NCBI GenBank assembly: GCA_965202665.1
Contig: OZ241841.1
Location: 832,001-896,000, forward strand
Source of the DNA: Candidatus Spongiisociaceae bacterium
GTDB taxonomy: Bacteria; Actinomycetota; Acidimicrobiia; Spongiisociales; Spongiisociaceae
Length of the DNA stretch: 64,000 bases
Direction: 5' to 3'
Position 1 is the stretch's first letter. The number at the start of each line of letters is the position of its first letter. The notes beneath the pieces are model-generated. The model was not told the DNA's origin, ran no database searches, and saw only the letters and a list, made by a program, of their open reading frames with translations. A program made the translations under genes and the position numbers. Shown in pieces: positions 5,194 through 55,054 of the stretch.

Positions 5194-5219
5194 CGGACGA
5201 CAGGAGGCAAGGAGGAACC

Positions 5220-15283: not shown

Positions 15284-16204
15284 TTAGAGGCGGGTCATTA
15301 GGTGTTGGACGGACATTAAATCCAAGTGGCCGCCGCCGCCGTTTTTGAAGAGCGTGATGCGGTCGGGGCCGGTGCGGCCCTGCGCGCCCGCGGCCAGTTG
15401 GTAGTGGTCGGCCAAAATGCGTTCGGGTGTTATCACTCCGGAGGCCAGCGGGATGGCCAACTCTCCGGTTTCCAACGCCGAATCCCGGGAGTCTACGAAA
15501 ATGTCCGCTTGGGCGACGGCCCGGTCGTCCGCCTCCCGCATGTGCGGCAGGTAGGAACCGACCAGATCCAGATGGGTTCCGGGGGCCACCCACCCGCCCC
15601 TTATCAGCGGCTCCACCGTCATCGTGGCGCAACTGATGACGTCGGCGGCCCGCACCGCCGGTTGCAGATCCCCGGCGACGGCGATGTCGGCGGGCAGGTT
15701 TCCGTCCGAAAGTTCATCGACCAACCGTTGCGCCCGGGCCGGGGTGCGATTCCAGACGGCCACCCGCTCCAACATTGGGCGGACGGACAGATGAGCCCTG
15801 ATCAGATGAGGGGCCATGGCCCCCGCTCCCACCATCAGCAGAAAGCGGCTGTCCTCCCGGGCCAGAAAACGGGCGCCCAGGGCGGAATCGCAGGCGGTTT
15901 TGAACCAGGTGAGGGCGTTGCCGATGATGACCGCCTCCTCCTGCCCGGTGTCCGGGTTGAACACCGCGTAAAGGGTGTGGACGGTGGGCAAATCCCGGTT
16001 GCCGGGGAAGATGGTGGCCAGTTTGATCCCCAACCCGGATCCGGGCGCAAACCCGGCCCGGGCCAGCAGGCCGTTGCCCCGCCCGTCCCCCGTATAAACA
16101 TCCCCCACCGCCGCCGCCGCCGACCGGTGCCGCTCCTCCAAAAAGTCAATCAGCGGCCCATAATCCAACAGCCCCATAGCCTCCTCATGCGTTATCACCC
16201 TCAT
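15284..16204 (-). CDS. Ornithine cyclodeaminase/mu-crystallin family protein
   Basis: GIKLATIFPGN, KTACDSALG, VGAGAMA, ADVISCAT, ITLFKNGG. Confidence 0.92.
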   Translation of the reverse strand: MRVITHEEAMGLLDYGPLIDFLEERHRSAAAAVGDVYTGDGRGNGLLARAGFAPGSGLGIKLATIFPGNRDLPTVHTLYAVFNPDTGQEEAVIIGNALTWFKTACDSALGARFLAREDSRFLLMVGAGAMAPHLIRAHLSVRPMLERVAVWNRTPARAQRLVDELSDGNLPADIAVAGDLQPAVRAADVISCATMTVEPLIRGGWVAPGTHLDLVGSYLPHMREADDRAVAQADIFVDSRDSALETGELAIPLASGVITPERILADHYQLAAGAQGRTGPDRITLFKNGGGGHLDLMSVQHLMTRL

Positions 16205-16222
16205 CAGCTACCACTTACCAAA

Positions 16223-17551
16223 TCAGTCTTTCATTTCTTTTAATTTGCTAGCCAAATTTGTTGACGCAATAAAGGCTTTTTGCTTACCAATTTGTTCCAG
16301 TTCTATAAGATCTATTCCACCTAAATACAGTAAATCATTACGGGCGGTGTTAAGAGAAACATCATGTCTATTAGCGTGACCGCGAAAGGTATACAGCCTG
16401 TCAGGATTTCTAAGAGCATCACTAAGCAATGCACGCTGGCGATAGTTCAATTCTGGAATATCACCTATTATACTGTCGACTTCTTGATTTCTCTTCAATA
16501 CGCTATCTACGTAAGTGGATAATCCTTGGAAAGCCTTGTCTAATACGTTTAGCTGATGAATCAAAAAATATGTCAGGTCATTATCGTTGGTCTCCGAATA
16601 TAAAAAGGAGTCACGATACTGTCCAGGTGCTTTATGCAACACGGCCGAAATTGAAACATATTCCATTAACCAATAGTCCCCCCGTAAGGCAGACCAATAA
16701 AAAAGTCCACGAGCCGTTCTACCATTGCCATCAGCAAATGGATGAATATAAGCTAACCAAAAATGTAACAATATGGAATGTAACAAAGGATGGGTAAATC
16801 CACCATTAGCACCGTTGGCAAAATCACATAACCTTTTTATCCGTCCCATAATCTCCTCTGCCCGCGGCGGCATGAACATTATTTTGTCTAACTCATCGAC
16901 AACTTTTGCTCTGATATCTCCTGGCCTTTGAAATCGGCCACAATCATCTGGATTTTCTAAAGTACCTTCTGTTAATTTTGCATGTATTTCACAAATCAAA
17001 TCTGGCGATAAATCTCTATTTGTTATCTCTCGTATATAGCGTATAGCATTATAATTGTTAGAAATCATCCTCTCAGAAATATCACGAGGTTTTTGTCCGC
17101 TACGAAGCATTTCTTTCGCTCTGACGCGTGTGGTAGCCGCACCTTCCAGTTGTGAAGAGGAAATGGCCTCCTCAATTATTCCTCTTACTCGATAGCTACC
17201 TCTTGTGGTAGGATTCAAAGTAGCGATTGGTGAAGCAAGCCTGCCTGTCGCCCGCATGTCAAGATTATGAAGGTGCTCCAAAACCGGATCAACCAAGCTG
17301 TAACGAAAGTAATCACCTTTTGTATTTAAAATAGGAGATGAACGAGCTATAGTATTCCTATTTAAAGCCAACCCTGCCCACCACTCATCTGTCGTAAGCC
17401 CAGCGGGCGGCGGGCGACGTCGAACCTCTTCCCAATGGAGATACCGACCATCCACAGTCGGACCTACATCTAAAACCCGATTCAAATGAATAGGGTCAAT
17501 CTTGATTAGAACATCATTAATCGCCGGAGGGTCTTCGGGCAACCGAGTCAT
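16223..17551 (-). CDS. Fic family protein with C-terminal wHTH
   Basis: HPFADGNGRTAR catalytic motif, SSQLEG inhibitory motif, TARNDL tail; visibly AT-rich. Confidence 0.93.
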   Translation of the reverse strand: MTRLPEDPPAINDVLIKIDPIHLNRVLDVGPTVDGRYLHWEEVRRRPPPAGLTTDEWWAGLALNRNTIARSSPILNTKGDYFRYSLVDPVLEHLHNLDMRATGRLASPIATLNPTTRGSYRVRGIIEEAISSSQLEGAATTRVRAKEMLRSGQKPRDISERMISNNYNAIRYIREITNRDLSPDLICEIHAKLTEGTLENPDDCGRFQRPGDIRAKVVDELDKIMFMPPRAEEIMGRIKRLCDFANGANGGFTHPLLHSILLHFWLAYIHPFADGNGRTARGLFYWSALRGDYWLMEYVSISAVLHKAPGQYRDSFLYSETNDNDLTYFLIHQLNVLDKAFQGLSTYVDSVLKRNQEVDSIIGDIPELNYRQRALLSDALRNPDRLYTFRGHANRHDVSLNTARNDLLYLGGIDLIELEQIGKQKAFIASTNLASKLKEMKD

Positions 17552-17652
17552 TATACCTACCTTTCCATTCCATGAGGTCAGCACTCACCAGACATCCAAT
17601 CCTGCCTGGCACTGCGCCAGTATACGATCCGACCATCCTAAATGTCAAATCG

Positions 17653-17827
17653 CCCCCACCCCCAACTGTCAATTTACTGTCAACAACTGTCAAAATGACA
17701 CTTGGCCGCCCCAACCCCCACCCCCAACTGTCAATTAACTGTCAACAACTGTCAAAATGACACTTGATCGCCCCAAACCCCCACCCCAACTATCAATTAA
17801 CTGTCAACAACTGTCAAAATGACACTT
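17653..17827. repeat. Three 62-bp tandem units built of ACTGTCAA sub-repeats
   Basis: CCCCAACTGTCAATT(T/A)ACTGTCAACAACTGTCAAAATGACACTT ending at 17703, 17765 and 17827. Confidence 0.95.
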
Positions 17828-18524
17828 AGGGGGCGGCGGGTGGGAGGTCGAAGGCTAAGACCAGCTCGGCGGAGACGCGGGATTGGCCGTTGGCCCCGGC
17901 TCTCAAGCGGGGGGTTACCACGCGGGCGGCGTCGACTAGGGCGAACCCCATTTCCAGCAGGGTTTGCGTATGCCAGGAGGCTACATTTTGACGTCGGCCC
18001 CTCCGGATGTGGTCGGAGATGTTCAACAGCAACCGCCCGCCCGCCCGCAGCACCCGGGCCGTCTCCCGCCAGGCCCGTTCGTGAAACTCCCGATATTGGG
18101 GTCCCCAGTGCAACACCCCCGAATTGTCCTCCGACAGATTGCGTCCCAGGTCGTGGGTGTAACTGCGACGTAACGACCCGTCCCGGGCGTTGTGATGGTC
18201 GGCCAGCCGGTTTCCGTAGGTCGGCGAGGTGACCACCGCGTCGAACCACCCTTCATCAAAGGGCAGAGCCAAGGCGTTGCCCACCCGCGTGTCGGGGTGG
18301 AGGCGCGCCCATTCCGGTTCCAACTCCACCCCCCAGGTGCGCATCTCCCACTCCACCATCCCCGGCAGTTCGTGCACCCGGCCCACTCCGGCGAAAGGAT
18401 CCAGCACCCGCCGGTGCTCCGGCCCCAGCAACCCGGCCAGCGCGGGCAGGATAGCGGATGAGAACACCGCCGGATGGGCCACCCCCGTCTCATAGAGTTT
18501 TTTCGCCGGGGGCCCTCCGCTCAT
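17826..18524 (-). CDS. Small orphan DNA amino-methyltransferase
   Basis: HPAVF, VLDPFAGVG (motif I) preceding VTSPTY (motif IV), RVLRAGG. Confidence 0.75.
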   Translation of the reverse strand: MSGGPPAKKLYETGVAHPAVFSSAILPALAGLLGPEHRRVLDPFAGVGRVHELPGMVEWEMRTWGVELEPEWARLHPDTRVGNALALPFDEGWFDAVVTSPTYGNRLADHHNARDGSLRRSYTHDLGRNLSEDNSGVLHWGPQYREFHERAWRETARVLRAGGRLLLNISDHIRRGRRQNVASWHTQTLLEMGFALVDAARVVTPRLRAGANGQSRVSAELVLAFDLPPAAP

Positions 18525-31481: not shown

Positions 31482-32543
31482 ATGAACAACATTTTCACCT
31501 TGCCCCGGCTGGCGATCGGCGTGATGCTGACGTTGGCGATAACGGCGGCCGCCTGCGGCGGCGCGGGGGAACAGGCGGTCCCGCCCCTGACCACCGAGGT
31601 CCCGGATGCGGCCCCGGCCGCCACCGAGCCGCCCCCCGCCGCGACGACCACTCAAGCGGCGGATGAACCGGAGACGGCGGCCCTGCAACCCGTCAGCCCG
31701 GACACCACCTGGGTAACCACCACCGAGGCGACCACCACTACGGCCGCGCCCGCTACCACCGCGGCAACCGCCGCCACTAGCCCGGCGACGACCACCACCG
31801 AGAAACCCGCTCCAACAACAACAGAAGCGCCCGCCGCCACCAAGAGCGCAACCACTACCACGGAAATAACTACCACCACCAAGGCCGCAACCACCACCAC
31901 GGAGGCGACGACCACGACCGTTGCAACCACCACAACGGAACCACCCGCCACCACCGAAGCACCAACGACAACCACCTCCCCGCCAACCACCGCCGCCAAC
32001 GCCGGACCGGTCATCTCCATCCCCCAACCAGGCGACGACGTACCCGCTATCAATAGCTTCGGAAAACGGGTGGACTTCTCGGCTTTTCCCGAGGTGACCA
32101 ACATTATCCCCTGGGAAATCTGGAATTCTGAAGATATAGAAAATATGCCCGAATGGACCTTTATGACCTTTACTCCCGGACCCAGCCGTAAGCGTTCAAC
32201 AATGGGGATAATGCTCGGTGCTTGGTCCAAGCCAATGTCACTCCAGGTAGGAACCGCTATTTACGGATCCCCGGAACTAGTAATAGGCTATCCTACACCT
32301 CCCGGAGTTTTAGAAGTTTTTGTAGTGAAGAGCATAACTCCCTTCCCAGATTATATAGATGATGCCTACAGATTAAATAACAAAACCATTTACCAAGTGA
32401 GGGTTTGCGGTGTTACCCCGGAAACCATCAGTTGGGGAATTGAGTGGGGACGACACGCCTACTTGGGAGAAGACGGTTTATATCGTCTCATAGGCAGTGA
32501 TACCTATGGTGAAGATGGATTCTGCAATGGCAAACTTCATTAG
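31482..32543 (+). CDS. Thr-rich stalked lipoprotein with low-GC C-terminal domain
   Basis: RBS GGAGG, lipobox TAAAC, long T/A/P linker, globular tail with a Cys pair. Confidence 0.8.
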   Translation: MNNIFTLPRLAIGVMLTLAITAAACGGAGEQAVPPLTTEVPDAAPAATEPPPAATTTQAADEPETAALQPVSPDTTWVTTTEATTTTAAPATTAATAATSPATTTTEKPAPTTTEAPAATKSATTTTEITTTTKAATTTTEATTTTVATTTTEPPATTEAPTTTTSPPTTAANAGPVISIPQPGDDVPAINSFGKRVDFSAFPEVTNIIPWEIWNSEDIENMPEWTFMTFTPGPSRKRSTMGIMLGAWSKPMSLQVGTAIYGSPELVIGYPTPPGVLEVFVVKSITPFPDYIDDAYRLNNKTIYQVRVCGVTPETISWGIEWGRHAYLGEDGLYRLIGSDTYGEDGFCNGKLH

Positions 32544-34343
32544 CTACCTCCTCCGCTACACCCTGCCCATTATAGCTCTCAGCGGGCTGACGTTGGTCCT
32601 GATAAATGGTGATGCCAGTGCTGATCTGACCGGTAGCGACCACCGTCATTCGGGTACCTGGCGCAAAGAGATATCCCACGCTAATTGGTGGAGGCCCCTT
32701 GGTGGAGGGTCCTCCGTCATTACCGACTGCCAAGGGACAACACATTGCGGCACCCACACCAAGCGCGGTTACAGATGGCTCAAGCACAACACAACAGTCA
32801 CTTGGCTGTGCTCCTATGGCGGAAAGGCGTGGAAGACCTATCACAACAGTGATTATGACGGGCCGTCGTCACCGCCGAGCGACGCGCAGGGAACCCGGGT
32901 ATGCCGAAGCCAGTTGCATGTCGCCACCACCACTACCACCCGACCGGCGCCTACGACCACGACGACTACAACCGTTCGCGCAGACGAGCCCCCGCCTACG
33001 CCGTCACCGCCCACTACGCCGCCTCCAAGTCGGCCGCGTCCCGCTCCTACTACGACCACCACCACGTTGCCGCCCATTCCAGAGGGCTGGAATGCCCGAT
33101 GCGGTCCGTTCGTTTACAGAAAGAACAAGGCTATCACCGAAACGGAACTGCCGTCCTACGGTTCGGGGTCGCACTACCTGTCGGGCCGACTGCCGCCCGG
33201 CATTTCCTGGCGCGCGGTGCGGATCGACCCGCAGGATCGCAGCTGGCGGCTAGTGAGAATCAAAGGCAAGCCCACCCGGACCGGGACTTGGACTGTTCGT
33301 CTACGCACCGCCGTTCCGGGTCCCGACCCTTCCATCAACTGCACCTTCCAGGTGGTAGACCCCTCCTGGAGAGGCGGTTGCTCTTTCTACCTGCGCCAAG
33401 GGCAATACGCCAATCTCAGGTTGCCGTATTACGGGCCGGGCAGCTTCACCTACCGGTGGGGAAGCGGGCAAATTCCGCCCGGTATGAACAGGATCGGAAT
33501 GACGGTGAGCGGCCACCCGCAGAGGGCCGGGCGTTTCTCCGGTCTTTGGCAAGCATTCGCCCGCGGCAATTCCCGGTACCCCTTCAGCTTCATCCGCTGT
33601 TCGTTCCGAGTGGCCAGCGCGCCGCCCACCACAACCACCACCACGACTTCCACCACAACGACCACCACCAAACCGCCGGTGTCCTGCTCCTGGCGGGTGA
33701 ACAGGTCGGCGGTAAATACGGTCAAAACCAAAATCGGATGGGAAACCCACATCCCCCTGTCCGCGGCGGGCCGGGCCGACCCTCCCCACCCGGACATTCC
33801 CGGCGGACGGAAGTACCTGGTGGTTACCGGCGACTTCGGCGACGGGGTTTTCCCGGACGTGTGGCCGGTGTGGGACGCCGGCGCCGCTTTGAACGTGTCC
33901 GACACCGGCGGTTGCGCGTGGACGGCGCAATCCGTCGTAACCGGGTGCGGCAACTATTTATGTGGAACGAGGCGGACGCGGCGGTCATCAGGCGGGTTTC
34001 CCCGGTGACCGCGGAGCGGTGGGACCGAATGGACGCCGGTCAGCGTTCCCGCCTGCAAGGGCAAATCAGGCGGGAATGGCGGCGGTTGGACGACGAAGCG
34101 GGCCAGATCGACAAAGTGATTCTGGGGTCGTCCTGCCCGATCGCAACGTCCGCCGCCAACCGCTCCCGCCTGTGCCAATGGGGGCTGCCCCATCCCGGAG
34201 TGTACGAGTGGCGGGTGTCGGTGACCTATTCAACGGTGGAGGAAGCCACCGGCGACGCGTTGGAAAGCGAGCTGACGGTCGCCTCCGGCGCCGACCATTT
34301 CGTCCGATTGGTGGACCACGCGTCCTACCAGGGAAGAAGATGA
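32527..34343 (+). CDS. Large secreted adhesin-like protein, frameshifted near 33941
   Basis: Signal peptide, T/P linkers, Ig-like LPPGI/IPPGM..SG.P repeats; coding continues in another frame (RVRQLFMWNE...GVYEWRVSV) to 34343. Confidence 0.65.
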
Positions 34344-39708: not shown

Positions 39709-40209
39709 CTAGCGAAACTTCCAGCCGGTTCTAAACTCATCGGCGTACTTCCTGATCGGAAAAAACCTAGCCGAATTGGTGAAAGCGTTTGATGTGAAAT
39801 AAGCCTTGGGGAAACCCTCCGGCAACCATTTCACGCGTCGGCGATGCCGGTAGCAACAGTCAACGTAAAAATAATCGCTGATGACCTGTCCGATGTAGAC
39901 TTTCTCGTCCATCTGATCCGGATAAACCATCAAATCCCCACGCTCAATTTTATTAACAAACGTATGCAGGTGCTCGACATAGATACCCACCTGTATGGCG
40001 TTTATATCAGGATTTAGGGGCTGATAAAGGGCCTTGTACATCTCCCGGGTCTGCGGCAGTTGCGACAAATCGGGCATGCAGTCTTCATCAATAGCCGCCA
40101 CTTGCTCATCTAGGAAAAGACGGCGCCCCAGTTGCGGCCGCGTTCCCCCGCGAATGCCCCATACCTGAGTTTCTTGCACGGCCAACCGGCCTCCTCTCGT
40201 TGCACCCAT
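39709..40209 (-). CDS. Stand-alone N-terminal (EVE/PUA-like) domain of Mrr-type restriction proteins
   Basis: WGIRGG, PDLSQL, FVNKIERGDLMVYP, YIGQVISDY, RRRVKWL; AT-richer than flanks. Confidence 0.65.
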   Translation of the reverse strand: MGATRGGRLAVQETQVWGIRGGTRPQLGRRLFLDEQVAAIDEDCMPDLSQLPQTREMYKALYQPLNPDINAIQVGIYVEHLHTFVNKIERGDLMVYPDQMDEKVYIGQVISDYFYVDCCYRHRRRVKWLPEGFPKAYFTSNAFTNSARFFPIRKYADEFRTGWKFR

Positions 40210-40768: not shown

Positions 40769-41428
40769 TCAAAACAGGCGCAGGCTGTTGGACGGGAGCC
40801 CCCGCAACTCGTCGTAGTCCACCGCTACGCATTTGATTCCCCGCGCCTCGGCCAGCACCACCGCCTGCGGAGCCAAAGACGCCGCCGCCAAAATTCCCCG
40901 CAACGGGTGCAGCCGGGGGTCGTTGCCCAGCCGGTCCAGATAGCGGGTTATCTGCTCCACCCCGTCCAGTTCCCCTCTCCGTTTCACCTCCACCGCCACC
41001 GTGTCCCCGTTGGAAGCCCGGCACAGCAAATCCACCGGGCCGATGTCGGTCGGATACTCCCGCCGGATAAGTGACAGCCCGTCTTCCAAAACCTGCGGAC
41101 GTTCGGCCAGCAGACGTTGCAGTTCGTCTTCCACCCCGTCCTTCTCCAACCCCGGATCCGCCCCGAAATCCTCCTGATGCTCAAAAAACACCTCGGCGAT
41201 GTTGATGGCCAACTCCTCCCCTTTGGAATTGGACACCACCCACCGCCCTTCGGATTCGGTCAACGTGTTTGGCGAGTTCATCCAGTTGAGAGGCTTGTAA
41301 GCCCCCCCGTCGGCGTGCACCGCCACGCATCCATCCGCCTTCACCATTATCAGGCGAACAGCCTCCGGCAGATGGGCGGAGAGGCGGCCCCGGTAGTCCA
41401 CCGAGCAACGGGCGATGAGCAGGCGCAT
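40769..41428 (-). CDS. nucS: Mismatch endonuclease NucS/EndoMS
   Basis: [39 protein letters not shown]. Confidence 0.97.
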
Positions 41429-45120: not shown

Positions 45121-46082
45121 ACCCCGGGGTTGGCGCAACGGGGCATGCGGCGTCCGGTGAGGGCCGCCGCCAAGTTTTGGGCGGCCATCTCCGCCATGCG
45201 GGTGCGGGTGCGCACCGTGGCGCTGCCGATGTGGGGAACGATCAGGCAGTTGGGGGCCGCTACCAGCGGATGGTCGGCGGGGATGGGCTCCGGGTCGGTC
45301 ACATCCAAGCCGGCGGCGGCGATGGTCCCGTCCGCCAAAGCCTCCGCCAAAGCTTCGGCGTCCACCACCGGGCCGCGGGAGGCGTTGACCAAGGTGGCGG
45401 TCGGCTTCATCCGGCGCAGGGCGTCGCGGTCGATCAGATGCCGGGTGTCGGCGGTCAACCCGACCAGGACCACAACATGATCCGCCTCCCCGCACAGGTC
45501 CGGCAACGAGCGGAACTCCGCTCCCAGCCGGGCCTCCGCCTCCGCATCCCGGCGGCGGCGGTTGTAAATTATCCGCATCCCGAACCCGGCCGCCCGCCGG
45601 GCCACCGCCTGCCCGATCCGTCCCAACCCGATTATTCCCAAGGTGGAACCGTGCAGGTCGTAACCCAGCATTCCCCGCGGGTCCCATTCCCCCCACTCCC
45701 CCGCCGCCACCTGCGCCATCCCCTCTTTGAAGCGGCGGGCGGCCGCGATCAGCAAACCGAAAGCTACGTCGGCGGTGGTTTCGGTCAGCACATCCGGGGT
45801 GTGGCCCACCGGAATGGCCCGTTCCGAGCAGGCGGCCAAGTCAATGTTGTCCACCCCCACCGCCATCTGGCTGACCGCCCGCAACCGGGGGGCGGCCTCC
45901 AACAGTTCCCGGTCAATCCGGTCGGTGAGCATCACCAGCAAACCCTCCGCCTCACCGGCCCGGGCCAGCAACTCCCCCCGGGGAATGGGGCGATCCTCCG
46001 GCCATATCCACACCGGCCCCACCGGCTCCAGCATCTCCTCCACCACCCGGAAAGTCCGGCGGGTAACCGCCACCCGCGTCAC
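45108..46082 (-). CDS. D-isomer 2-hydroxyacid dehydrogenase (glyoxylate/hydroxypyruvate reductase)
   Basis: TPDVLTETTAD, GLGRIG, NASRGPVV, GLDVTDPEP, PHIGSAT. Confidence 0.95.
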   Translation of the reverse strand: MTRVAVTRRTFRVVEEMLEPVGPVWIWPEDRPIPRGELLARAGEAEGLLVMLTDRIDRELLEAAPRLRAVSQMAVGVDNIDLAACSERAIPVGHTPDVLTETTADVAFGLLIAAARRFKEGMAQVAAGEWGEWDPRGMLGYDLHGSTLGIIGLGRIGQAVARRAAGFGMRIIYNRRRRDAEAEARLGAEFRSLPDLCGEADHVVVLVGLTADTRHLIDRDALRRMKPTATLVNASRGPVVDAEALAEALADGTIAAAGLDVTDPEPIPADHPLVAAPNCLIVPHIGSATVRTRTRMAEMAAQNLAAALTGRRMPRCANPGVYPA

Positions 46083-47806
46083 AGTACTTGCGCCCGCTGC
46101 AAAGCCTCCCCCACCTCCCCCGCCCCCGAATAGGTAACCGTCAACTCATCCTGGGCCCGCGTCATCCCCACGTACAGCAACGATTTGACACCATGAATAT
46201 CATCCTCCCCACCGGGGACCCAAACCAGATTGGCCCCGCAGATAAACACCTTCCCGAACTCCAACCCTTTGAACTGGTACAGGTTGGCGATTCGCACATT
46301 GCCTTTTGCGTTGATCACATTCTCCTTGCCACCACTAAATATATGAGCAAACGAAATATTCCGAACGGTAAAGGCTCGCTTCAACTCAGATACCATACTG
46401 CTGTTTCCAGAAATAACTGCTACATCGTCAGGTGATGCTCCTCTTTCCAGATGTTTGGAAACCCGTTCAGCAACTTCGGCGGCTTCCCTAGTAGTATCCG
46501 CGCAAGCTACCACTCTAGGAGGCAAACCAGTGCGACGGGACGCCTCCGGCGGAACCACCGCTGTCTCATCATCCGGATCAAACTTGCCATCCGTCCAGTC
46601 CGAGGAACCGGTTAGGAAGTTCATGGCGAACTCCAGTATCTCCCGGGTGTTGCGGTAGTTGACCGTCATAATGCTGGAACGTCCGCGGGCGGTTAACTCC
46701 GGCGGATTCCAAAGTGTCCGGCGACGGTATATGTCCTGGGCGCTGTCATAGGCCACCACGAAATCCTTCTCTTCCGGATGTCCCGGCCTTACCATCGCGT
46801 AAGCGAGGTCAAGATGGGATTTCCGCAAGTCCTGGGCTTCATCCACCAAAACCAGGTGATACAGATCATCCGCTGGCCAATGGGAAACCATCTTTAGCGC
46901 CTCCTGTCGCAACCTTTCCCAACCATCCTCCGTTTTGAGATTGAACTTCTTTCCAGAGTGACCCGCAATTCCTTTGGCCAGCGAATCCACCGTTTGAACG
47001 GTGATATTCTTATGCTCCCTCGCCAACTCTTGCAAGGCCAGAGACAACGCTCTGTTGAAGCAGAGTAGCAACACCCGATACTGGGGAAAATGGCGGGCTA
47101 TGAAACGGGCGCGGTGCAGGAGCACCAAGGTCTTGCCGCTCCCCGCCACCCCTCTGATACGCCGGTAACCGGGACCTAAATATTCGGCCAGTCTTTCCTG
47201 TTGCCGGTCCATAACCGCAAAAACGTCTTCTTCGTCGCCGGGAGGACTGAAAACCAGCTGGTTGTCCCGAACCGGCTTTTTGATAACTATTTTCGGATTG
47301 ACCGCCGCCCGGGCCGCTTTTTCCTGCTCCTCGGTCAACGGCCCGCCCTGGTTGGACAGAATGCGGCCAATGGCTCCCCGAAAGGCGGACGAAGCCAGAT
47401 CTTCGGCGAACAGAACCGTCTCGCCCGCTTCGGCGAGTTCGACGCTTAACGATCCCCCTCGTTTCGTATCAGGCAAAGCCAACACGTTCTTGACCGGCAA
47501 GGAAGCAATCGGCTCCGCCTGAGCCCCCCGTCCCAGGTTTTTCAGCTCTTCTGCAACCTGCTGGCGAACTTCCTTAGCTTCGGGGGTGAACTTGCGACGC
47601 CTGGCCTGGCGGGAACGTTCCGGAGGTGCTTCGATCACCAGAATTCCGGCCGCTGGGTCTAGGAGGACCAAAAACTTATGTTCTTCTTCTTTCAGCCAGA
47701 CGGTCACCTCCTCCGGCAGGTTATCCCGAGCGGCCCGGGCTATGCTTTGCAAACGACGAGAGACGTTGTTGCGGCTAGGCAGATTCTCCGGCAACAAGAA
47801 GGCCAT
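46079..47806 (-). CDS. SF1 UvrD-like helicase with degenerate NERD-like N-terminus
   Basis: GVAGSGKT, LVDEAQD, YDSAQDIY, NYRNT, FKGLEF, LYVGMTRA; N-terminal FLVLLDPAAGILVIE. Confidence 0.85.
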   Translation of the reverse strand: MAFLLPENLPSRNNVSRRLQSIARAARDNLPEEVTVWLKEEEHKFLVLLDPAAGILVIEAPPERSRQARRRKFTPEAKEVRQQVAEELKNLGRGAQAEPIASLPVKNVLALPDTKRGGSLSVELAEAGETVLFAEDLASSAFRGAIGRILSNQGGPLTEEQEKAARAAVNPKIVIKKPVRDNQLVFSPPGDEEDVFAVMDRQQERLAEYLGPGYRRIRGVAGSGKTLVLLHRARFIARHFPQYRVLLLCFNRALSLALQELAREHKNITVQTVDSLAKGIAGHSGKKFNLKTEDGWERLRQEALKMVSHWPADDLYHLVLVDEAQDLRKSHLDLAYAMVRPGHPEEKDFVVAYDSAQDIYRRRTLWNPPELTARGRSSIMTVNYRNTREILEFAMNFLTGSSDWTDGKFDPDDETAVVPPEASRRTGLPPRVVACADTTREAAEVAERVSKHLERGASPDDVAVISGNSSMVSELKRAFTVRNISFAHIFSGGKENVINAKGNVRIANLYQFKGLEFGKVFICGANLVWVPGGEDDIHGVKSLLYVGMTRAQDELTVTYSGAGEVGEALQRAQVL

Positions 47807-47818
47807 AATCCGTCAACT

Positions 47819-50800
47819 CTAGATAAGCGCCCGGCCCGTCGCCGTCAGAACCAAGGTTTTGTATTCGGTTCCATTCCACTCCCGGGGCTCTTCATCCACC
47901 AGTTCCTCCTCTATCATCCCCTCGAAAGTCCTAGCAACACCCTCCGCGCCTAGGAGGCGCAATCGGCCGCGGAGCGGGTGCGCCTGCAGTTCATTGGGCA
48001 ACAGTTTCGCCCCCCGCTCACCGGACAAGCAATTTTTAAGATTACGGTCGGAAAAATTGCGACCGTCCGCCCAATCCAACAAATACAGTATCACCCGCCG
48101 CGGCTCGATGGACTCCACCAAGCGCTCCTTGGTGACCTCCGTCTTGGCCCAAGGGCGGGGCAGATCAGGGGTGCAAGCATCGCATCCGCCGCAACGACCC
48201 GAGCCGTCGCTGCCAAAATATTCAAGGAGCGAAGCCCGCAGGCAGGATATTTTCTCCCGGGCGAACTTGCGCGCTTGCAACGCCTTCTGTTCCACGATTT
48301 CCTTACGCTCATTGCTCAGCTGGTCCGCTTGCGACCAATCCGGTTCCGCATCCAACAACCTTTCCACCGTCCACCCGTATTTCCATGTTGGGAAAGCGAC
48401 GATGTTGCGCCGGGCTAACTCGAACAGGTCCGACTCCGCCTGCGGGATAGAGCAACCCAACCTCTCCGCCCAGATGGGGCTGTATCTGCCCCCCTCCGAC
48501 TCAACTAGTTTCAGTATCCGCCCGGCTCTTTCCGCCAACTCCGGTTTTTCTTCCTGTAGCTCCTCCACCTTGTTCCGAGAACGGGCGTCGGCGATCACCC
48601 GGCCCTCTAACACAAAGTCCTGCTCTCGGCGCACCGCTCCTATTTTCCCCAAATAATGCAGGGCCAGTTGCGCCGCCTCTTTCCGGGAACGGCCTTTTTC
48701 ATCTCGTAATAAGTCGTCCAAGTCCAAATGATTGCTCCCCAAATCCAGCCTCGCCCACGCCTTTTTCAAATCCTCGCGAGAGGGTACCGCATTATCGACG
48801 AAAAACTGGTGTATGCGGCAGTCGCGCGGGGTGGTTAGCAACACGGCGGTTCCCTTTTCCAATTCGCGGGCCGCCCGGCCTGTTTCCTGCACGTATTCTT
48901 CAATGGAGGCTGGCATCTCCAAGTGGACGATGAGGGCTATGTTCGGCTTGTCAATACCCATGCCGAAGGCTTTGGTGGCGACCACCACGTCGATCTCATC
49001 GTGGATGAACGCATCCTCCACATAGTTCCTCTCCTCACCGGTCATTCCGCCGTGATAAGCGCGCGCCGAAACGCCTGCGGCCCGCAACATGGCCCCCAAA
49101 TTGGCCGCATCCGCCTGCCTGGGAACATACACGATGGCGCTCTGGTCGCGGAAGCAATCCACGATCTTCGCCACCTTCACCACTCGGTCGTCAAAATCTT
49201 TACATTTTTCCCGGTAATACCGAATTTCGGGACGGTCCGGGAGTTGAACAATCTGCCGGGCCGTATCGTCCAAGCCCAGCAAATCCCGGGTTTCCCCGAT
49301 AGTCCGGCCGGTGGCGGTGGCGGTGACCGCCAAAGTGGGAACCCGCTTCCCGCAGATTTCCTCCAATGCTTTCGGGATCAACGAGTATTCGGGGCGGAAA
49401 GCATGACCCCATTGGGAGATGCAGTGGGCTTCGTCCACCGCCACCCGGGACACTTCCACCTTGGCCAAGCGACTGCGGAAATTGGGTGACCAGAGCCGTT
49501 CCGGGCTCACATACAGCAGTTTGTACGACCCCCGGGCCGCCTCCTCTAAAATATCGTCCTGTTCGCTTTGCGGCACCCCGCTGTAAATACCAGCCGCCGC
49601 GGTTACCCCCCGGGCCCGCAGATTGTGAATCTGGTTGCGCATCAGGGCGATGAGGGGTGAAATCACCAGCGTCACCCCGGGGGACAACAGGGCGGGCAAC
49701 TGATAGGTAAGGGACTTGCCGGAACCGGTGGGCAACACCGCCACCGCATCCCTGCCCGTCATAAACGGGATCATCGTTTCCAGTTGGCCGTCGCGCCACT
49801 GCTCATGACCGATCAACCCCCGGGCTTCCTCCAACAGGTTCACGATTAACTTCTCGTCCGGCTCCTCCCCGCTGGCAACCCTCCGATCCAACCCCAACTG
49901 CAACACCTGGTTTTCCCAAGGGTCGGCGCTGGTTATGCTACTTATTTTCTCCCTGAGTTCATCGTCGAACTCAAAACCCAAATGTTCGGCTATCTTCTGA
50001 TAGGCCTCCTCCCGGGACGAGACTTCCTTTACGGCGGGCGGCCCGACCAGGCTTTTCAGCAACAAATGCTGATAGGAACCGGGACGGCACAACCGGTTGT
50101 CCAACACCGCCGAAACTCCGATATCGGTTTCGGTTCTGATCAGCCTCCCCACTCCCTGGGCGAAGCGCAACCCCGCCCGGGGAACCATATAATGGGTGAA
50201 GGGGTCTTTGTCTTTTAGTTCCATCTGTTCCATGCGGGCCCCGGCCACCGGATCGGCGGGCGAATCGAACGGCACCTTCTCGATGAGCAGGAGGCTCAGC
50301 GACTCACCGGGAATGTCCACCCCCTCCCAAAAAGAGCGGACGCCCAACAGGCAGGCTGGGATTTGGTTGCGCATTTCTTCCATTAGCTGCGCGGCGGGGC
50401 CTTCGCCTTGCGCCAACAGGGGAATCCCCAACGCCTGCAAAGGCGGGCGGGCGTGGTCCCGTACGCTTTCCAAACGGGCGCGGGCGGTAAACAAGGCCAT
50501 GGACCGCCCGCCGGTCAGGGTGAACAGACGGGGTATTTCCTCCGCTTCCGCCTGTTCGAATAGCTCCAACAGGGACCCCCGGGGGGCGGGCAGATAATCG
50601 GTCAGCAACAGCAGGTGATTCTCCGGCAGTTGCTCAAAGGGCGTGGGCACCACCTCGCGGCGGGCCGTCCCCAAACCTAAAACGTCGAGCAGGTAACTGA
50701 AATCGCCTCCGACTTGGAGGGTGGCCGAAGTCAGGCAAACCGAATCAAGTTTCTCCCACAACTCTCCCAACTGACCGGAAATGGAAATGGGCGCCCGGCG

Positions 50801-52783
50801 CAACGACCACCGCCAGGCATCGTCCTCCAAATCCAGATGGGCGATGTTGATCCACTCCCAACCTTCCTCCGACCACAGCACCGAATCGATCAGCTTGCCC
50901 TGGGCGCGAGCGGCGCTTCCCAGACGACGCACCTCGTCTTCCAAACGATGGCGCTGATACCTGCCTCGGGGCTCTTCGGGAACGGTAACTTCGTTGAAGG
51001 CCTCCGTCATCCCTCGCAGGGCGTCCCGTAACTTTTTGCCCGCCTCCGTAACCGCCCGATAGTGGGGATTTTTGGTGTCCGAACCGCGCCGGATGCGGTA
51101 GGAAACCCCGAACCGCTCGGCTTCCTCCCGGCCCCGTCCGGTGCGGCTGCGCACATATTCCGCCAGCGGGGACTCCAAATCGGGCAGGGCCGCCGCCGCC
51201 TGCTGGGCGGCTTCCCGCAAAGCCGGCAAAGAAGGATCGGCGGCGGCTATTCCGGCTTCGGACAGTCGTTGAATAATTCCCCGCCGGCCGAGCACTGCTT
51301 CGCACAGCAAATGAACATCCCGCCCGGTCACCTGTTCGGTGAGGGCGGAGGTGACCGAATCCTCCATGTTGTGGGCCTCGTCCACTATCAGGCCCCGGAC
51401 TGGTTCCATCGCCTTGCTCATTATCACCAAGGCGTGGTTGACCACCGCCACATGGGAGGTGGCCACCCGGTCGCAGGCCCTTTGGTAGAAATCCAATCGG
51501 CCCAGTTGCGACGACTGATCCGCTTGTTCTTCGGTTCGCAACTTCCAGCGGAGGATTTCCCATTCGGGAACCGTTCCTTCGATGGCGAAAGCGCGCAGAT
51601 CCTCCCAGTCGCCCGTGGGGGTTTCCGCCGCCCAGCCGGCCAGCAAAGCCAAGACCAGGGCCGACCCGGGTTCGAACCCGCCGGCGTCCAATTCGGCGGC
51701 CAGGGATTCCAGGCTCAGGTAGTTGTTCATGCCTTTCAGAACCACCCAGCGGAAAGGTTCCAACCGCTCCTCCAGTTCCAGCAAGGTGGCCATTATCTGG
51801 TCTTGCAGGAGGCGGGTGTGGGGGGCCACCGCCACCGGGGTTCCGGCGGCCCGGGCGTATTCAACGGCCGGGACCAGATAGGCCAGGGTTTTGCCGGTGC
51901 CGGTGGGGGCCTCCGCCAGCAACCTTTGTTTATCGGCCAAAGCATCGGCTACTTGTTGCGCCATCTGCCGCTGTTGCGGACGGGGACGGCGCCCGTCGGT
52001 CATCAACCGGCCTCCTTCTTCAAAGTAGGACAGCACCGCGGGGATGTCATACTTCCCGCTGGGATGCAACGGGGCGGCGGAGGATGGTTCTTCCAGGATT
52101 TCCGCCAGCGGCGGAGGGGCGGCCACCGGTTCCAAAAACTTCGCCCAGGGGTGGCCGCCGGCACCCAGAATCCACCGTTGCAGGCGACGGGCCGGGTTGT
52201 CCTCGTTCAGAATCTGGAGGAGGCGCACCATGATCTGTTGCGTCAGCCGGGCGTCTTCCACGGCTTGGTGCCGCTCCCGTTCTTCGGCGATGGCGAAGTG
52301 CCGGAGCAGATGGTCAATGCCCCGCCCGGGCGGTGGGGCCTCGCCCCGTACGCCGCGGAGGGCGTTGCGTCCCGCCCGCGGGAAAACCAGGTGGGCCAAC
52401 TGCAGGGTGTCCAGCCGCTCCCCCGCCGGAACGGGCAGGCCGGCCTCCCGCAGGGCCATGTCCAATATCGGGAAATCAAAATCGAACCCGTTGTGGGCTA
52501 TCAAAGGCAGGCCCCCCGCCCACTCCAGAAACTCCCGCATCACCTCATCCAAAGGAGGGGCCTCCCGGACATCCTCGTCGACCAGCCCGGTTAACTCGCT
52601 CACCTCCGGGGAGATGCCCGTCTCGCACCGCACCAGCTTGCTGAAACCTTCCCCATCGGCGAGCCGGGGGCCCTGGCCGATGACCGCTCCCACCTGGATG
52701 ATCCGGTTCTTCTCCGGACTTACCCGGACGTGGGTGGTCTCCAAATCGAAGACCACATATTTGTCTCCATTCGTGAAAACCAT
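47819..52783 (-). CDS. DEDDh exonuclease-DinG helicase-RecQ helicase fusion
   Basis: FDLETT/HNGFDFD/HQAVEDA; APTGTGKT/VDEAH/SATL/FWEGVD/QGVGRLIR; LPTGSGKS/DEAHCISQWGH/AFGMGIDK/QETGRAAR/C...CGGCDAC. Confidence 0.92.
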   Translation of the reverse strand: MVFTNGDKYVVFDLETTHVRVSPEKNRIIQVGAVIGQGPRLADGEGFSKLVRCETGISPEVSELTGLVDEDVREAPPLDEVMREFLEWAGGLPLIAHNGFDFDFPILDMALREAGLPVPAGERLDTLQLAHLVFPRAGRNALRGVRGEAPPPGRGIDHLLRHFAIAEERERHQAVEDARLTQQIMVRLLQILNEDNPARRLQRWILGAGGHPWAKFLEPVAAPPPLAEILEEPSSAAPLHPSGKYDIPAVLSYFEEGGRLMTDGRRPRPQQRQMAQQVADALADKQRLLAEAPTGTGKTLAYLVPAVEYARAAGTPVAVAPHTRLLQDQIMATLLELEERLEPFRWVVLKGMNNYLSLESLAAELDAGGFEPGSALVLALLAGWAAETPTGDWEDLRAFAIEGTVPEWEILRWKLRTEEQADQSSQLGRLDFYQRACDRVATSHVAVVNHALVIMSKAMEPVRGLIVDEAHNMEDSVTSALTEQVTGRDVHLLCEAVLGRRGIIQRLSEAGIAAADPSLPALREAAQQAAAALPDLESPLAEYVRSRTGRGREEAERFGVSYRIRRGSDTKNPHYRAVTEAGKKLRDALRGMTEAFNEVTVPEEPRGRYQRHRLEDEVRRLGSAARAQGKLIDSVLWSEEGWEWINIAHLDLEDDAWRWSLRRAPISISGQLGELWEKLDSVCLTSATLQVGGDFSYLLDVLGLGTARREVVPTPFEQLPENHLLLLTDYLPAPRGSLLELFEQAEAEEIPRLFTLTGGRSMALFTARARLESVRDHARPPLQALGIPLLAQGEGPAAQLMEEMRNQIPACLLGVRSFWEGVDIPGESLSLLLIEKVPFDSPADPVAGARMEQMELKDKDPFTHYMVPRAGLRFAQGVGRLIRTETDIGVSAVLDNRLCRPGSYQHLLLKSLVGPPAVKEVSSREEAYQKIAEHLGFEFDDELREKISSITSADPWENQVLQLGLDRRVASGEEPDEKLIVNLLEEARGLIGHEQWRDGQLETMIPFMTGRDAVAVLPTGSGKSLTYQLPALLSPGVTLVISPLIALMRNQIHNLRARGVTAAAGIYSGVPQSEQDDILEEAARGSYKLLYVSPERLWSPNFRSRLAKVEVSRVAVDEAHCISQWGHAFRPEYSLIPKALEEICGKRVPTLAVTATATGRTIGETRDLLGLDDTARQIVQLPDRPEIRYYREKCKDFDDRVVKVAKIVDCFRDQSAIVYVPRQADAANLGAMLRAAGVSARAYHGGMTGEERNYVEDAFIHDEIDVVVATKAFGMGIDKPNIALIVHLEMPASIEEYVQETGRAARELEKGTAVLLTTPRDCRIHQFFVDNAVPSREDLKKAWARLDLGSNHLDLDDLLRDEKGRSRKEAAQLALHYLGKIGAVRREQDFVLEGRVIADARSRNKVEELQEEKPELAERAGRILKLVESEGGRYSPIWAERLGCSIPQAESDLFELARRNIVAFPTWKYGWTVERLLDAEPDWSQADQLSNERKEIVEQKALQARKFAREKISCLRASLLEYFGSDGSGRCGGCDACTPDLPRPWAKTEVTKERLVESIEPRRVILYLLDWADGRNFSDRNLKNCLSGERGAKLLPNELQAHPLRGRLRLLGAEGVARTFEGMIEEELVDEEPREWNGTEYKTLVLTATGRALI

Positions 52784-52863
52784 TCGGCAACCATAGCCCG
52801 CCGGCCGGGTTTGCCCCATTTGCCGTTCTCTAGTATTCCGGACAACCGGCGAGGGGAAAGACG

Positions 52864-54819
52864 ATGGATGAGCGGGCGGTCGGGCGGACAATCGAATGGC
52901 ATAAGGCGGCGGAGCCGGGGGAGCTGCCCCCGGGACGGGTGAAGACGGCGACCGCCGGGTTGCGCACCATCTGCCTAACCAACTTCGCGGGCGAATACGG
53001 GGCGTTGGACAACCGTTGCCCCCACCAAGGCGGACCGCTGGGCGAAGGCTCCATCGAGGACTGCTGGTTGCGTTGCCCGTGGCACGGCTACGACTATCAC
53101 CCGCTCACCGGCCAACCCCCGGAGGGGTTCAGCGATTCGGTGGCGGCCTACCCGGTGGAGGTGCGCTCCGACGGGATCTACGTGGGCGTGCCTCCCGAAC
53201 CGGAGCAACTTCGCACCGTGTCCGATGTAATGGTGGAAACGATGATCAACTGGGGCGTCGCCCATGTGTTCGGGATGGTGGGCCATTCCAACCTGGGGTT
53301 CGCCGACGCCATGCGCCGGGCGGAGGAACGGGGCGAGTTGACGTTCATCGGAGTCCGCCATGAAGGGGCGGCCTCTTTCGCAGCCTCCGCCTACGGCAAG
53401 TTGACCGGCCGCTTGGCGGCCTGCTTCGGCATCGCCGGGCCGGGGTCCACCAACCTGCTCACCGGCTTGTACGACGCCAAAGCGGACCGGGCCCCGGTGC
53501 TGGCCCTCTCCGGGCAGGTGCCTTCCCGGGTGAGGGGGCGGGGGGCCTTCCAGGATCTGGACCTGGGCGCGGCCTTCGCCGACGTCGCCCGCTACTCGGA
53601 AACGGCCCTGCCCGATTCCGACCACGCCGAACTGACCTCCCTGGCCTGCAAAACCGCCCTGTTGGAACGGGATGCGGCCCATCTCATCCTGCCCGATGAA
53701 GTCCAGTACCAACCGGCCCCCGGCATTCCCGCCGGAGGACCCGGCGGACGCATGGGCTCGCGGAAAATCCGCCCGCCCGACGAGTCGTTGCAGCAGGCGC
53801 TGGACCTGCTGGGCCGCTCCCGCCGGCCGGTGATCGCGGTGGGGGCGGGAGCCCGGTTCGCCATGGAAGAGATCATCCGCCTGGCGGAACGGCTGGGCTC
53901 CCCGGTGCTGACCACTTTCAAAGCCAAAGGCTTCATCTCCGACCGTCATCCGCTGGGGGCGGGGGTGCTGGGGCGTTCCGGCACGCCGGTGGCCTCCTGG
54001 CTGATGAACGAGTCGGATGCGGTCCTGGTTTTCGGGGCTTCCTTCTCCAACCACACCGGCATCGCCGATTACAAGCCGATCATCCAGGTGGACGACGACC
54101 CGGCCGCCCTGGGCCGCTTCCATCCGGTGGAGGTCCCGGTGCAGGGGGAGGCGGGGGAGACGGCCCGGTTGTTGTTGGAGCTTTGTCCCAACGCTCTCCG
54201 AACCGCCGACCAACGGGAGGATGTGACCCGGCGGTGGTCTATATGGCGGGCGGAGAAGTCATCCCGGGAGGGCGACCGTTCCCAAGCGGGAATTTCGGCG
54301 GCGGCCATATTCGCGGCGATGACCCGCCGTGTGGATTCCCGGGCGGTGATCTGCGCGGACGTGGGCAACAACACCTATTCTTTCGGACGGTATTTCGAAG
54401 CCGACCGGCAGGATGTTTTGATGTCCGGCTATCTGGGCTCCATCGGTTTCGGCTACCCGGCGGCCATGGGCGCCTGGGCTGCCGCCCCCGACCGGCAGAT
54501 CGTAGCCGTCACCGGCGACGGCGGGTTCGGCCAGTACATGGGCGAGTTGACCACCGCCGTCAAATACGGGATGAACATCACCCACCTGTTGCTCAACAAC
54601 CATTCCTTGGGAAAAATTTCCAAAGAACAGCGGGACGGCCGCTACCAAGTGTGGCAAACCGGTTTGCGCAACCCCGACTTCGCCGCCTACGCCCGGCTGT
54701 GCGGAGCTTTCGGACTGCGGGTAACCGACCCCGCCCGCTTGGACGACGCCTTCGCCCAAGCCTTGGCCCACCCCGGCCCGGCCCTAGTGGAAATAATCCA
54801 AGACCCCCTGCTCATCTAA
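52864..54819 (+). CDS. Rieske-fused thiamine pyrophosphate enzyme (pyruvate oxidase-like)
   Basis: CPHQGG...CPWHG; RHEGAA; GDGGFGQ...NN. Confidence 0.92.
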   Translation: MDERAVGRTIEWHKAAEPGELPPGRVKTATAGLRTICLTNFAGEYGALDNRCPHQGGPLGEGSIEDCWLRCPWHGYDYHPLTGQPPEGFSDSVAAYPVEVRSDGIYVGVPPEPEQLRTVSDVMVETMINWGVAHVFGMVGHSNLGFADAMRRAEERGELTFIGVRHEGAASFAASAYGKLTGRLAACFGIAGPGSTNLLTGLYDAKADRAPVLALSGQVPSRVRGRGAFQDLDLGAAFADVARYSETALPDSDHAELTSLACKTALLERDAAHLILPDEVQYQPAPGIPAGGPGGRMGSRKIRPPDESLQQALDLLGRSRRPVIAVGAGARFAMEEIIRLAERLGSPVLTTFKAKGFISDRHPLGAGVLGRSGTPVASWLMNESDAVLVFGASFSNHTGIADYKPIIQVDDDPAALGRFHPVEVPVQGEAGETARLLLELCPNALRTADQREDVTRRWSIWRAEKSSREGDRSQAGISAAAIFAAMTRRVDSRAVICADVGNNTYSFGRYFEADRQDVLMSGYLGSIGFGYPAAMGAWAAAPDRQIVAVTGDGGFGQYMGELTTAVKYGMNITHLLLNNHSLGKISKEQRDGRYQVWQTGLRNPDFAAYARLCGAFGLRVTDPARLDDAFAQALAHPGPALVEIIQDPLLI

Positions 54820-54832
54820 CATAAGGAAGGAA

Positions 54833-55054
54833 ATGATGTTTGATTGGAGCTCTTGCCCGGAGCTGGAATCCGTCCCCGGCAAAGTGAGCGGCGCTTGGGT
54901 GTTTAAAAACACCCGCGTACCCGTACGCGCACTGTTCGAGAACCTGCGTTCGGCGACTGTTGCTGAGTTTTGCGAGATGTTCCCGCCCGTTACGGTGGAA
55001 CAAGCCCGGCATGTCTTAGATTGCGTGTCGACGCACTTGAAGGATCGGGCCTAA
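54833..55054 (+). CDS. DUF433 family protein (antitoxin-like)
   Basis: PGKVSGAWVFKNTRVPVRALFENL; RBS AAGGAAGG. Confidence 0.85.
   Translation: MMFDWSSCPELESVPGKVSGAWVFKNTRVPVRALFENLRSATVAEFCEMFPPVTVEQARHVLDCVSTHLKDRA

Follow-up and report, generated by a model that had tools for sequence, protein, structure and literature searches.

Is a protein chain that joins an exonuclease to two helicase motors a genuine gene product, and if so, what might it do? The question is raised by a pair of genes in a 64,000-nucleotide stretch of the genome of Candidatus Spongiisociaceae bacterium (contig OZ241841.1, positions 832,001 to 896,000), referred to here as the window. The longer gene encodes an exonuclease-DinG-RecQ fusion, and the gene directly downstream, the partner, encodes a superfamily 1 (SF1) helicase with an N-terminal NERD domain (Table 1). 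A sequence-only reading of the window had put the pair forward as a candidate new defense or repair system. We find that the locus belongs to an uncharacterized family of Thermus-type fusions, of which it is a partner-bearing variant lacking the DinG iron-sulfur (FeS) cysteines. Regarding function, we propose, with evenly balanced confidence, that this mobile, accessory two-gene module is a predicted bipolar helicase-nuclease that unwinds foreign DNA and degrades it.

Table 1. Positions of the fusion gene, the partner gene and their domains in the window (aa, amino acids)
Feature	Positions	Strand	Details
Exonuclease-DinG-RecQ fusion gene (P0001)	47819-52783	-	1654 aa, open from ATG at 52783; domain and motif evidence
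DEDDh 3'-5' exonuclease domain	52232-52756	-	aa 10-184; D13, E15, D103, H172, D177
DinG-type superfamily 2 (SF2) motor, FeS cysteines lost (pseudo-FeS)	50024-52009	-	aa 259-920
DinG-RecQ linker	49820-50023	-	aa 921-988; least conserved portion; crossed by independent contigs
RecQ-type SF2 motor	48794-49819	-	aa 989-1330
RecQ zinc-binding site	48170-48322	-	aa 1488-1538; C1514, C1531, C1534, C1537
-10-like hexamer TATGGT	52790-52795	-	6 nt ahead of the fusion ATG; read from sequence
Partner gene (P0002), pseudo-NERD and compact SF1 helicase	46079-47806	-	575 aa
NERD (PD-(D/E)xK) domain, predicted inactivated	47282-47806	-	aa 1 to about 175
SF1 helicase core of the partner	46127-47209	-	aa 200-560; K225, DEAQD 322-326, TR 549-550

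The fusion chain and its family

The fusion matches RNase_T (residues 10-184), Helicase_C_2 (752-912), DEAD (999-1162), Helicase_C (1205-1306) and RecQ_Zn_bind (1488-1538) in Pfam, together with DinG (259-920) and RecQ (990-1344) in NCBIfam. The sequence-only reading had described a protein of about 1650 residues with intact DEDDh, DinG-type and RecQ-type motifs and a zinc site, and the alignment bears this out. The five exonuclease residues, the four zinc ligands, K298, DEAH 468-471, SAT and Q876/R880/R883 of the DinG half, and K1023, DEAH 1117-1120, TAT and Q1299/R1303/R1306 of the RecQ half are each kept in at least 45 of the 46 homologues aligned. A winged-helix tail likely follows the zinc site; RQC (PF09382) is listed for the homologue P0105, and in the fusion itself the winged helix is otherwise a prediction. 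The hexamer TATGGT suggests a likely leaderless transcript, and its position backs the start codon given in the sequence-only reading. Comparable hexamers, judged by eye, occur upstream of related fusions.

That the chain is an assembly chimera or an accidental read-through of two genes could be argued from the low conservation of the linker, and a few copies are indeed split by frameshifts, yet these fall within DinG, away from the junction. All 120 homologues among the matches listed carry the exonuclease, DinG and RecQ (46-93% identity, with 98-100% coverage for 117 of them). The junction near 49900-50000, which the sequence-only reading had singled out as a possible assembly error, is spanned by single contigs in runs X11, X4, X7, X18 and X6, belonging to studies P3, P4, P5 and P7 (95-99% identity). 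An identical contig from run X2 (study P2) is set apart from the independent runs since it is possibly the source. The constant layout and the contigs of four other studies refute the chimera, to which we assign a negligible probability.

The same conclusion follows from more distant relatives. Among its best 150 matches, a profile search of clusters at 50% identity returned 89 proteins of at least 1500 residues. Each of these covers both DinG halves and RecQ on a single chain, and 63 include the exonuclease too. Therefore, the DinG-RecQ tandem is the conserved core. Twenty distant clusters were checked for taxonomy, and the names returned were only Chloroflexota and Deinococcus. None of 34 viral loci, from 25 of 64 parts scanned, extends into the RecQ half. 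We found no close copies on plasmids; distant fusions lie on Thermus, Meiothermus and Deinococcus plasmids. Variants of the layout also occur: P0351-P0373 are fusions of DinG and RecQ that lack the N-terminal exonuclease and carry long C-terminal extensions with no match in Pfam, and P0374 and P0383 are exonuclease-DinG proteins of the same clade in which about 450 unassigned C-terminal residues replace RecQ. Separately, a 1792-aa RecQ-UvrD fusion (L190:6702-12080, + strand, on G020:C1) places motors of different superfamilies in one chain, and similar frames of 1784-1841 aa are present in G008, G014, G015, G018 and G019; the RecQ-UvrD protein of the G576 operon described below is related to it.

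The architecture, which the sequence-only reading did not recognize, was already in print. Omelchenko et al. (2005; PMC1274311) named a three-domain DnaQ-DinG-RecQ protein ('REC_DNA') on pTT27 of T. thermophilus HB27. The HB27 protein WP_011174436.1 (1649 aa) shares domain order and length with the fusion, is 32% identical to it across 1517 aligned residues, and has every motif of the exonuclease, the motors and the zinc site; the profile E value is 9e-182. Homology extends over the whole length, zinc site and tail included. The DinG halves of the fusions form one clade with Thermus and the other fusions, apart from native DinG. An origin by fusion of the native dinG was considered and rejected, as the DinG half is not derived from the native FeS DinG.

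The variant described here nevertheless differs from the Thermus gene in three respects. First, most distant Thermus-type members keep four FeS cysteines, a feature not in the 2005 description, whereas the present subfamily has lost them: the four ligand columns hold Cys in 0, 0, 0 and 6 of 52 close members and in 57, 50, 42 and 58 of 62 distant fusions. The loss marks a subfamily within the Thermus-type fusions. Second, no NERD-SF1 partner lies within 10 kb of the Thermus gene, in contrast to the fixed partner of the sponge-symbiont subfamily; the UvrD found upstream of a Deinococcus plasmid copy is a different one. Third, the Thermus copy sits on a megaplasmid, whereas the copy here is chromosomal and fixed in a clade.

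The available text of a transposon sequencing study (PMC13140390) describes the pTT27 recQ as highly permissive and part of the shell pangenome. Judging from location and annotation, this recQ is probably the WP_011174436.1 gene, and on that available text the Thermus fusion would be accessory and dispensable. The accessible part of PMC11143384 lists the gene merely as RecQ, and in the main text of a 2025 DinG review (PMC11981726), as far as it was available, the word 'RecQ' is absent. In the literature covered, with subscription papers and Table S1 of PMC11981726 outside it, we found no functional study of the fusion, from Thermus or from sponge symbionts, and only the 2005 mention. The triple fusion has been described; the FeS-less subfamily with its fixed partner was not found in print.

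Several better-known proteins resemble parts of the fusion. ExoDinG (S. aureus, B. subtilis; TIGR01407, PDB 8zef/9ii8) likewise combines a DEDDh exonuclease with an FeS-less DinG motor but has neither a RecQ half nor a partner. It measures about 900 aa and ends after motor domain 2, whereas the fusion continues for 730 residues and misses the ExoDinG cut-offs (376 against 547.7 bits for TIGR01407 and 439 against 789 for PRK08074). The absence of FeS cysteines from the S. aureus protein is stated in section 3.5 of the available review text (PMC11981726). WRN also carries a DEDD exonuclease and a RecQ motor in one chain, and the RecQ part of the fusion matches WRN structures. However, a whole DinG motor intervenes in the fusion, the domain scan of the protein gave no HRDC match, and no signs of orthology were seen beyond the RecQ core. 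PADLOC matches to Dpd (DpdF), PsyrTA and type IV CRISPR CasDinG are limited to the RecQ or DinG core, and no dpd, psyrA or cas neighbors were found among the flanking proteins scanned at 21 loci. We place the fusion outside RecBCD/AdnAB, ExoDinG proper, Dpd, PsyrTA and type IV CRISPR. Its PADLOC hits are single domains only, and the earlier statement that it fits no named system stands with regard to defense systems.

The partner and the movement of the pair

As the sequence-only reading had noted, the partner begins 12 bp downstream of the fusion (gap 47807-47818). Its UvrD-like core is intact, with the Walker A lysine K225, DEAQD and the motif VI TR invariant in all 58 aligned partners. Conversely, the column of the NERD catalytic Asp reads Y, F or H in 58 of 58, and that of the catalytic Lys reads Pro in 57 of 58 and never Lys; NERD outgroups read PDF...EVKD at these sites. 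From these columns, the nuclease site is lost and the domain is predicted to be a dead nuclease. Both this loss and that of the DinG FeS cysteines had escaped the sequence-only reading. PDDEXK_1 of Pfam matches neither the fusion nor the partner.

The partner matches PADLOC C3a187 (E 2e-50), and its nearest outgroups are NERD-SF1 proteins beside defense systems. It differs from the NERD+UvrD proteins (C3a187, RTasNERD-Hel; Nhi/AbiO-like), since the active PD-(D/E)xK site that marks Nhi/AbiO-like proteins is lost in all aligned partners, and since the partner is obligately paired with the fusion. One near outgroup is an 825-aa NERD-like SF1 protein at L045:1-10478, where a Zorya I operon is followed by a Dna2/NAM7-type helicase and this protein. 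Genome G674 has, besides the usual downstream partner, a further SF1 protein divergent from the fusion (L139:13847-15535, +), in which Pfam recognizes a NERD domain.

In related genomes, the partner lies directly downstream of the fusion, 0-194 nt away, at 20 of 20 loci. It has the same position at nine of nine close loci of a named scan (two may duplicate the 20-locus set) and at three more. A four-domain fusion including the partner was sought and rejected, as partner-profile matches are absent from 148 cluster representatives.

Of 24 genomes in the host family, the same 17 contain fusion and partner. Neither gene is found in any of 16 other genomes of the order or of 400 in a phylum sample; the fusion occurs in 3 of 300 of a class sample. 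(The 16, and the 41 relatives mentioned below, include two unpublished genomes, G028 and G039, on which nothing else here depends.) The patchy distribution that the sequence-only reading looked for is thus present, with mobility and strict pairing. The named carriers belong to Acidimicrobiia and include Ca. Poriferisodalis and Ca. Poriferisocius. Sponge metagenomes are among the sequencing runs in which the window stretch is present, and no RNA runs are listed.

Quick trees of one marker, RpoB, place the carriers in one clade of four genera, where 18 of 21 genomes have the module and the three non-carriers form one small subclade. Most fusion copies track their hosts, with exceptions: copies from two genera are sisters, one genome carries the fusion type of another genus, an extra copy falls among those of Acidimicrobiales, and a Poriferisodalis copy joins those of the host family. 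Distances of fusion and partner correlate at 0.92-0.95, against 0.71 and 0.58 with RpoB (descriptive values, as kin are not independent). The two genes move as a unit between genera and orders. Five genomes hold two copies. At seven or more loci the copy is truncated, frameshifted or interrupted by a stop, although assembly errors may account for some of these. At L023, an extra copy consists of just the two genes between 507-bp direct repeats (99%) of the rseP 3' end. These repeats, at 5118-5624 and 13022-13528, lie in a tsf-pyrH-frr-cdsA-dxr-rseP-ispG-proS operon with no integrase inside.

The pair had also been described as AT-richer than its surroundings. This is so at the locus, with a GC content of 0.601 (partner 0.561) against 0.676 in the flanking genes and 0.71 against 0.83 at third codon positions. 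Read off the composition table, a similar dip is seen at only about 3 of 20 related loci and is no family trait.

Function of the module

DinG moves 5'-3' and RecQ moves 3'-5'. An AlphaFold2 model of residues 259-1346 (46-row alignment) gave a mean local confidence (pLDDT) of 89.5 and a predicted template modeling score (pTM) of 0.82, which suggests a defined mutual placement of the two motors and is compatible with one rigid bipolar motor. Each half of the model has its own structural matches, to DinG and to RecQ respectively, and none of the solved chains listed spans the two. Going by family biochemistry, DinG would pull the 5'-ended strand and RecQ the 3'-ended strand, with both traveling the same way along the duplex. 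If the arrangement is as fixed as the model implies, the simplest reading would be a bipolar motor with one motor per strand, while the DEDDh domain would trim the freed 3' strand and remove the 3' tail on which RecA could load. With its SF1 core and its dead nuclease fold, the partner might bind or sense single-stranded DNA or forks, and it might load or license the fusion where phage or plasmid DNA offers ends or replication intermediates; these two steps are the most speculative of the scheme.

The sequence-only reading had compared such a bipolar chain to a RecBCD-like machine for end processing. The bipolar motor remains plausible in light of the model, whereas the role in repair resection is not supported. 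Bipolar helicase-nucleases are known as multi-subunit SF1 machines, and RecC has a partner-like inactivated PD-(D/E)xK fold. The likeness to RecBCD/AdnAB is a functional analogy only: two motors possibly on opposite strands are combined with an inactivated nuclease fold, but RecBCD and AdnAB use SF1 motors and a RecB-type nuclease, in contrast to the SF2 motors and 3'-5' exonuclease of the fusion. The opposite polarities in one chain, predicted to be rigid, and the RecC-like fold of the partner would suit end resection for homologous recombination. We nevertheless consider such a role very unlikely. The host genome keeps tandem UvrD-PDDEXK genes (1034 and 1147 aa), which we read as AdnAB-type from their architecture, as well as UvrD and a separate 618-aa RecQ, and PDDEXK_1 matches are present in 41 of 41 relatives. 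Therefore, the module is additive and no RecBCD substitute, and a replacement of AdnAB or RecQ by it was rejected. Moreover, a 3' tail is needed for RecA loading, and the sole live nuclease, being 3'-5', would remove it. A product that cannot load RecA in the manner of RecBCD would favor destruction or clean-up over resection.

Processing of RNA or R-loops, in which the DEDDh domain would act on RNA and the motors would clear RNA-DNA hybrids or stalled complexes, is unlikely as well. Exo-DinG proteins degrade single-stranded RNA (section 3.5 of the available text of PMC11981726), and a Listeria DinG exonuclease removes unprocessed rRNA, according to the accessible part of PMC12774634. The top fold matches of the partner model are SLFN11 and UvrD, with the HelD core comparable, so that Schlafen and HelD fit about as well as UvrD. 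However, the model is weak (pLDDT 64, pTM 0.47), and the matches are at similarly low TM scores (0.3-0.47) that do not separate the families. A RecQ with a zinc site is a DNA motor, and the patchy, mobile distribution also argues against an RNA role.

The foreign-DNA role is favored, first, by the additive nature of the module with respect to core repair genes: a separate DinG is kept by all seven of the carriers found by way of named loci, although not by G674. It is also favored by movement as a unit, seen in the correlated distances, the extra, swapped and broken copies, and the copy between rseP repeats. According to the available text of PMC12345164, the S. aureus Exo-DinG is an active 5'-3' helicase, which shows that an FeS-less Exo-DinG can be one. 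Furthermore, control by SOS or by a PafBC-type regulator was considered and rejected. With search patterns that we take to represent the two motifs, a LexA box was found in none of 26 upstream regions of related loci and a PafBC-type motif in only two; the lack of a LexA box favors defense and argues against repair.

Defense is also suggested by the contexts of relatives (type III restriction-modification operon, Zorya, Kiwa, Tmn, Azaca), rather than by the local flanks. In G576, a distant fusion shares one operon with type III Res and Mod, a RecQ-UvrD fusion and an SNF2 protein, and ZacA is nearby. The Thermus fusion, which is strain-variable and highly permissive in the transposon study cited above, lies about 6.7 kb from cmr genes on its megaplasmid. 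NERD-intact relatives of the partner adjoin Zorya, BrxHI/SngC-like, Tmn, KwaB and ZacBC genes, and also type I and IV restriction, McrBC-like and Druantia/Dpd-like genes; these large neighbors were picked by eye at about half of 30 loci, and no rate is derivable from them. As for the order of genes, the G576 region (G576:C36:194000-236000; L140, L138, L141), a large defense-like operon, begins with three unknown genes, the RecQ-UvrD fusion (L140:6733-12000) at the operon head, and Res and Mod. Two small genes, the distant fusion and the SNF2 protein (more than 2400 aa) follow, and then an AddAB-like pair and ZacA.

Several observations weigh against the foreign-DNA role. Retention in 18 of 21 genomes, mostly by vertical descent, is high for a defense system; the nuclease of the partner is predicted dead, and the pair is accompanied by no self/non-self marker; and the pTM value does not establish that both DNA channels face one way. 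Locally, the enrichment in defense islands that the sequence-only reading had proposed as a check did not appear. Toxin-antitoxin, restriction-modification or defense-type genes occur within about 6.5 kb at 13 of 21 loci, and 6 of 12 blind 13-kb regions taken from these genomes contain them too (p 0.72); the control is small, with classes assigned from Pfam or PADLOC names and with cluster representatives scanned rather than every copy. According to the available text of PMC12008989, genomes of this kind are rich in such genes. In addition, uvrA/uvrB flank four loci of one genus, and ogt, tag or fpg flank a few others. Finally, a separate DinG is found in none of the 18 carriers of the host clade, the host included, against four sister genomes among the seven non-carriers of the family.

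Most of these points would fit an accessory repair or fork-rescue role, in which an Exo-DinG crosslink or fork enzyme with a WRN-like RecQ motor and an SF1 helper replaces the native FeS DinG in the host clade. In the accessible part of PMC12345164, the S. aureus Exo-DinG needs both of its activities for crosslink resistance. The retention, the missing separate DinG, the repair neighbors and the lack of local defense enrichment all point the same way, and we rate this role only a little below defense. Conversely, the exclusion of DinG amounts to one event on one branch. General displacement of DinG by the module was rejected, as it holds in the host family only, given the seven other carriers that keep DinG; a full DinG is also missing altogether from three of 21 clade members and from 11 of the 16 other genomes of the order. 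The DinG half does not descend from the native enzyme it would replace, RecO- and UDG-type repair genes also occur in the blind control regions, and extra, swapped and broken copies are not what a repair role would suggest.

Neighboring genes and the place of the family

The flanks of the pair vary between genera and are mostly metabolic. In the window, a Rieske domain fused to a pyruvate-oxidase-like thiamine pyrophosphate enzyme (52864-54819, +) is divergent from the fusion; a type II methyltransferase takes its place in a genome of the same genus. It is followed by a DUF433 antitoxin-like gene (54833-55054, +), with inserts of 140 and 344 bases on either side in related-strain contigs. A nucS mismatch endonuclease gene (40769-41428, -) lies 4.6 kb downstream of the pair. 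A short AT-richer reading frame (39709-40209, -), between a Tad-like locus and a gene that by eye is trmL-like, matches the N-terminal half of the PADLOC candidate PDC-S02 (E 2e-22). GC is low at 16001-18000 (0.45-0.50) and 32001-33000 (0.535), and a 500-aa frame at 32506-34008 has no Pfam or PADLOC match.

Returning to the foreign-DNA role, a more specific form of it is possible, although we hold it as doubtful. The pair would be a three-motor anti-invader machine, in which a rigid single-chain bipolar SF2 helicase with a 3'-5' exonuclease is switched on by an SF1 sensor whose nuclease died at pairing. Such a machine would have reinvented the RecBCD principle independently, with SF2 motors throughout, to destroy DNA rather than to recombine it, and would be traded as a two-gene cassette among sponge symbionts. 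The DinG-RecQ chain, kept in 89 distant clusters and predicted to pack rigidly, would be a second bipolar helicase-nuclease solution from another helicase superfamily. The paired losses of the DinG FeS cluster and the partner nuclease site in the sponge-symbiont variant point to a division of labor. The architecture itself is not new, having been named in 2005, and its homologue is a dispensable Thermus gene; hence, the proposal may be tested directly.

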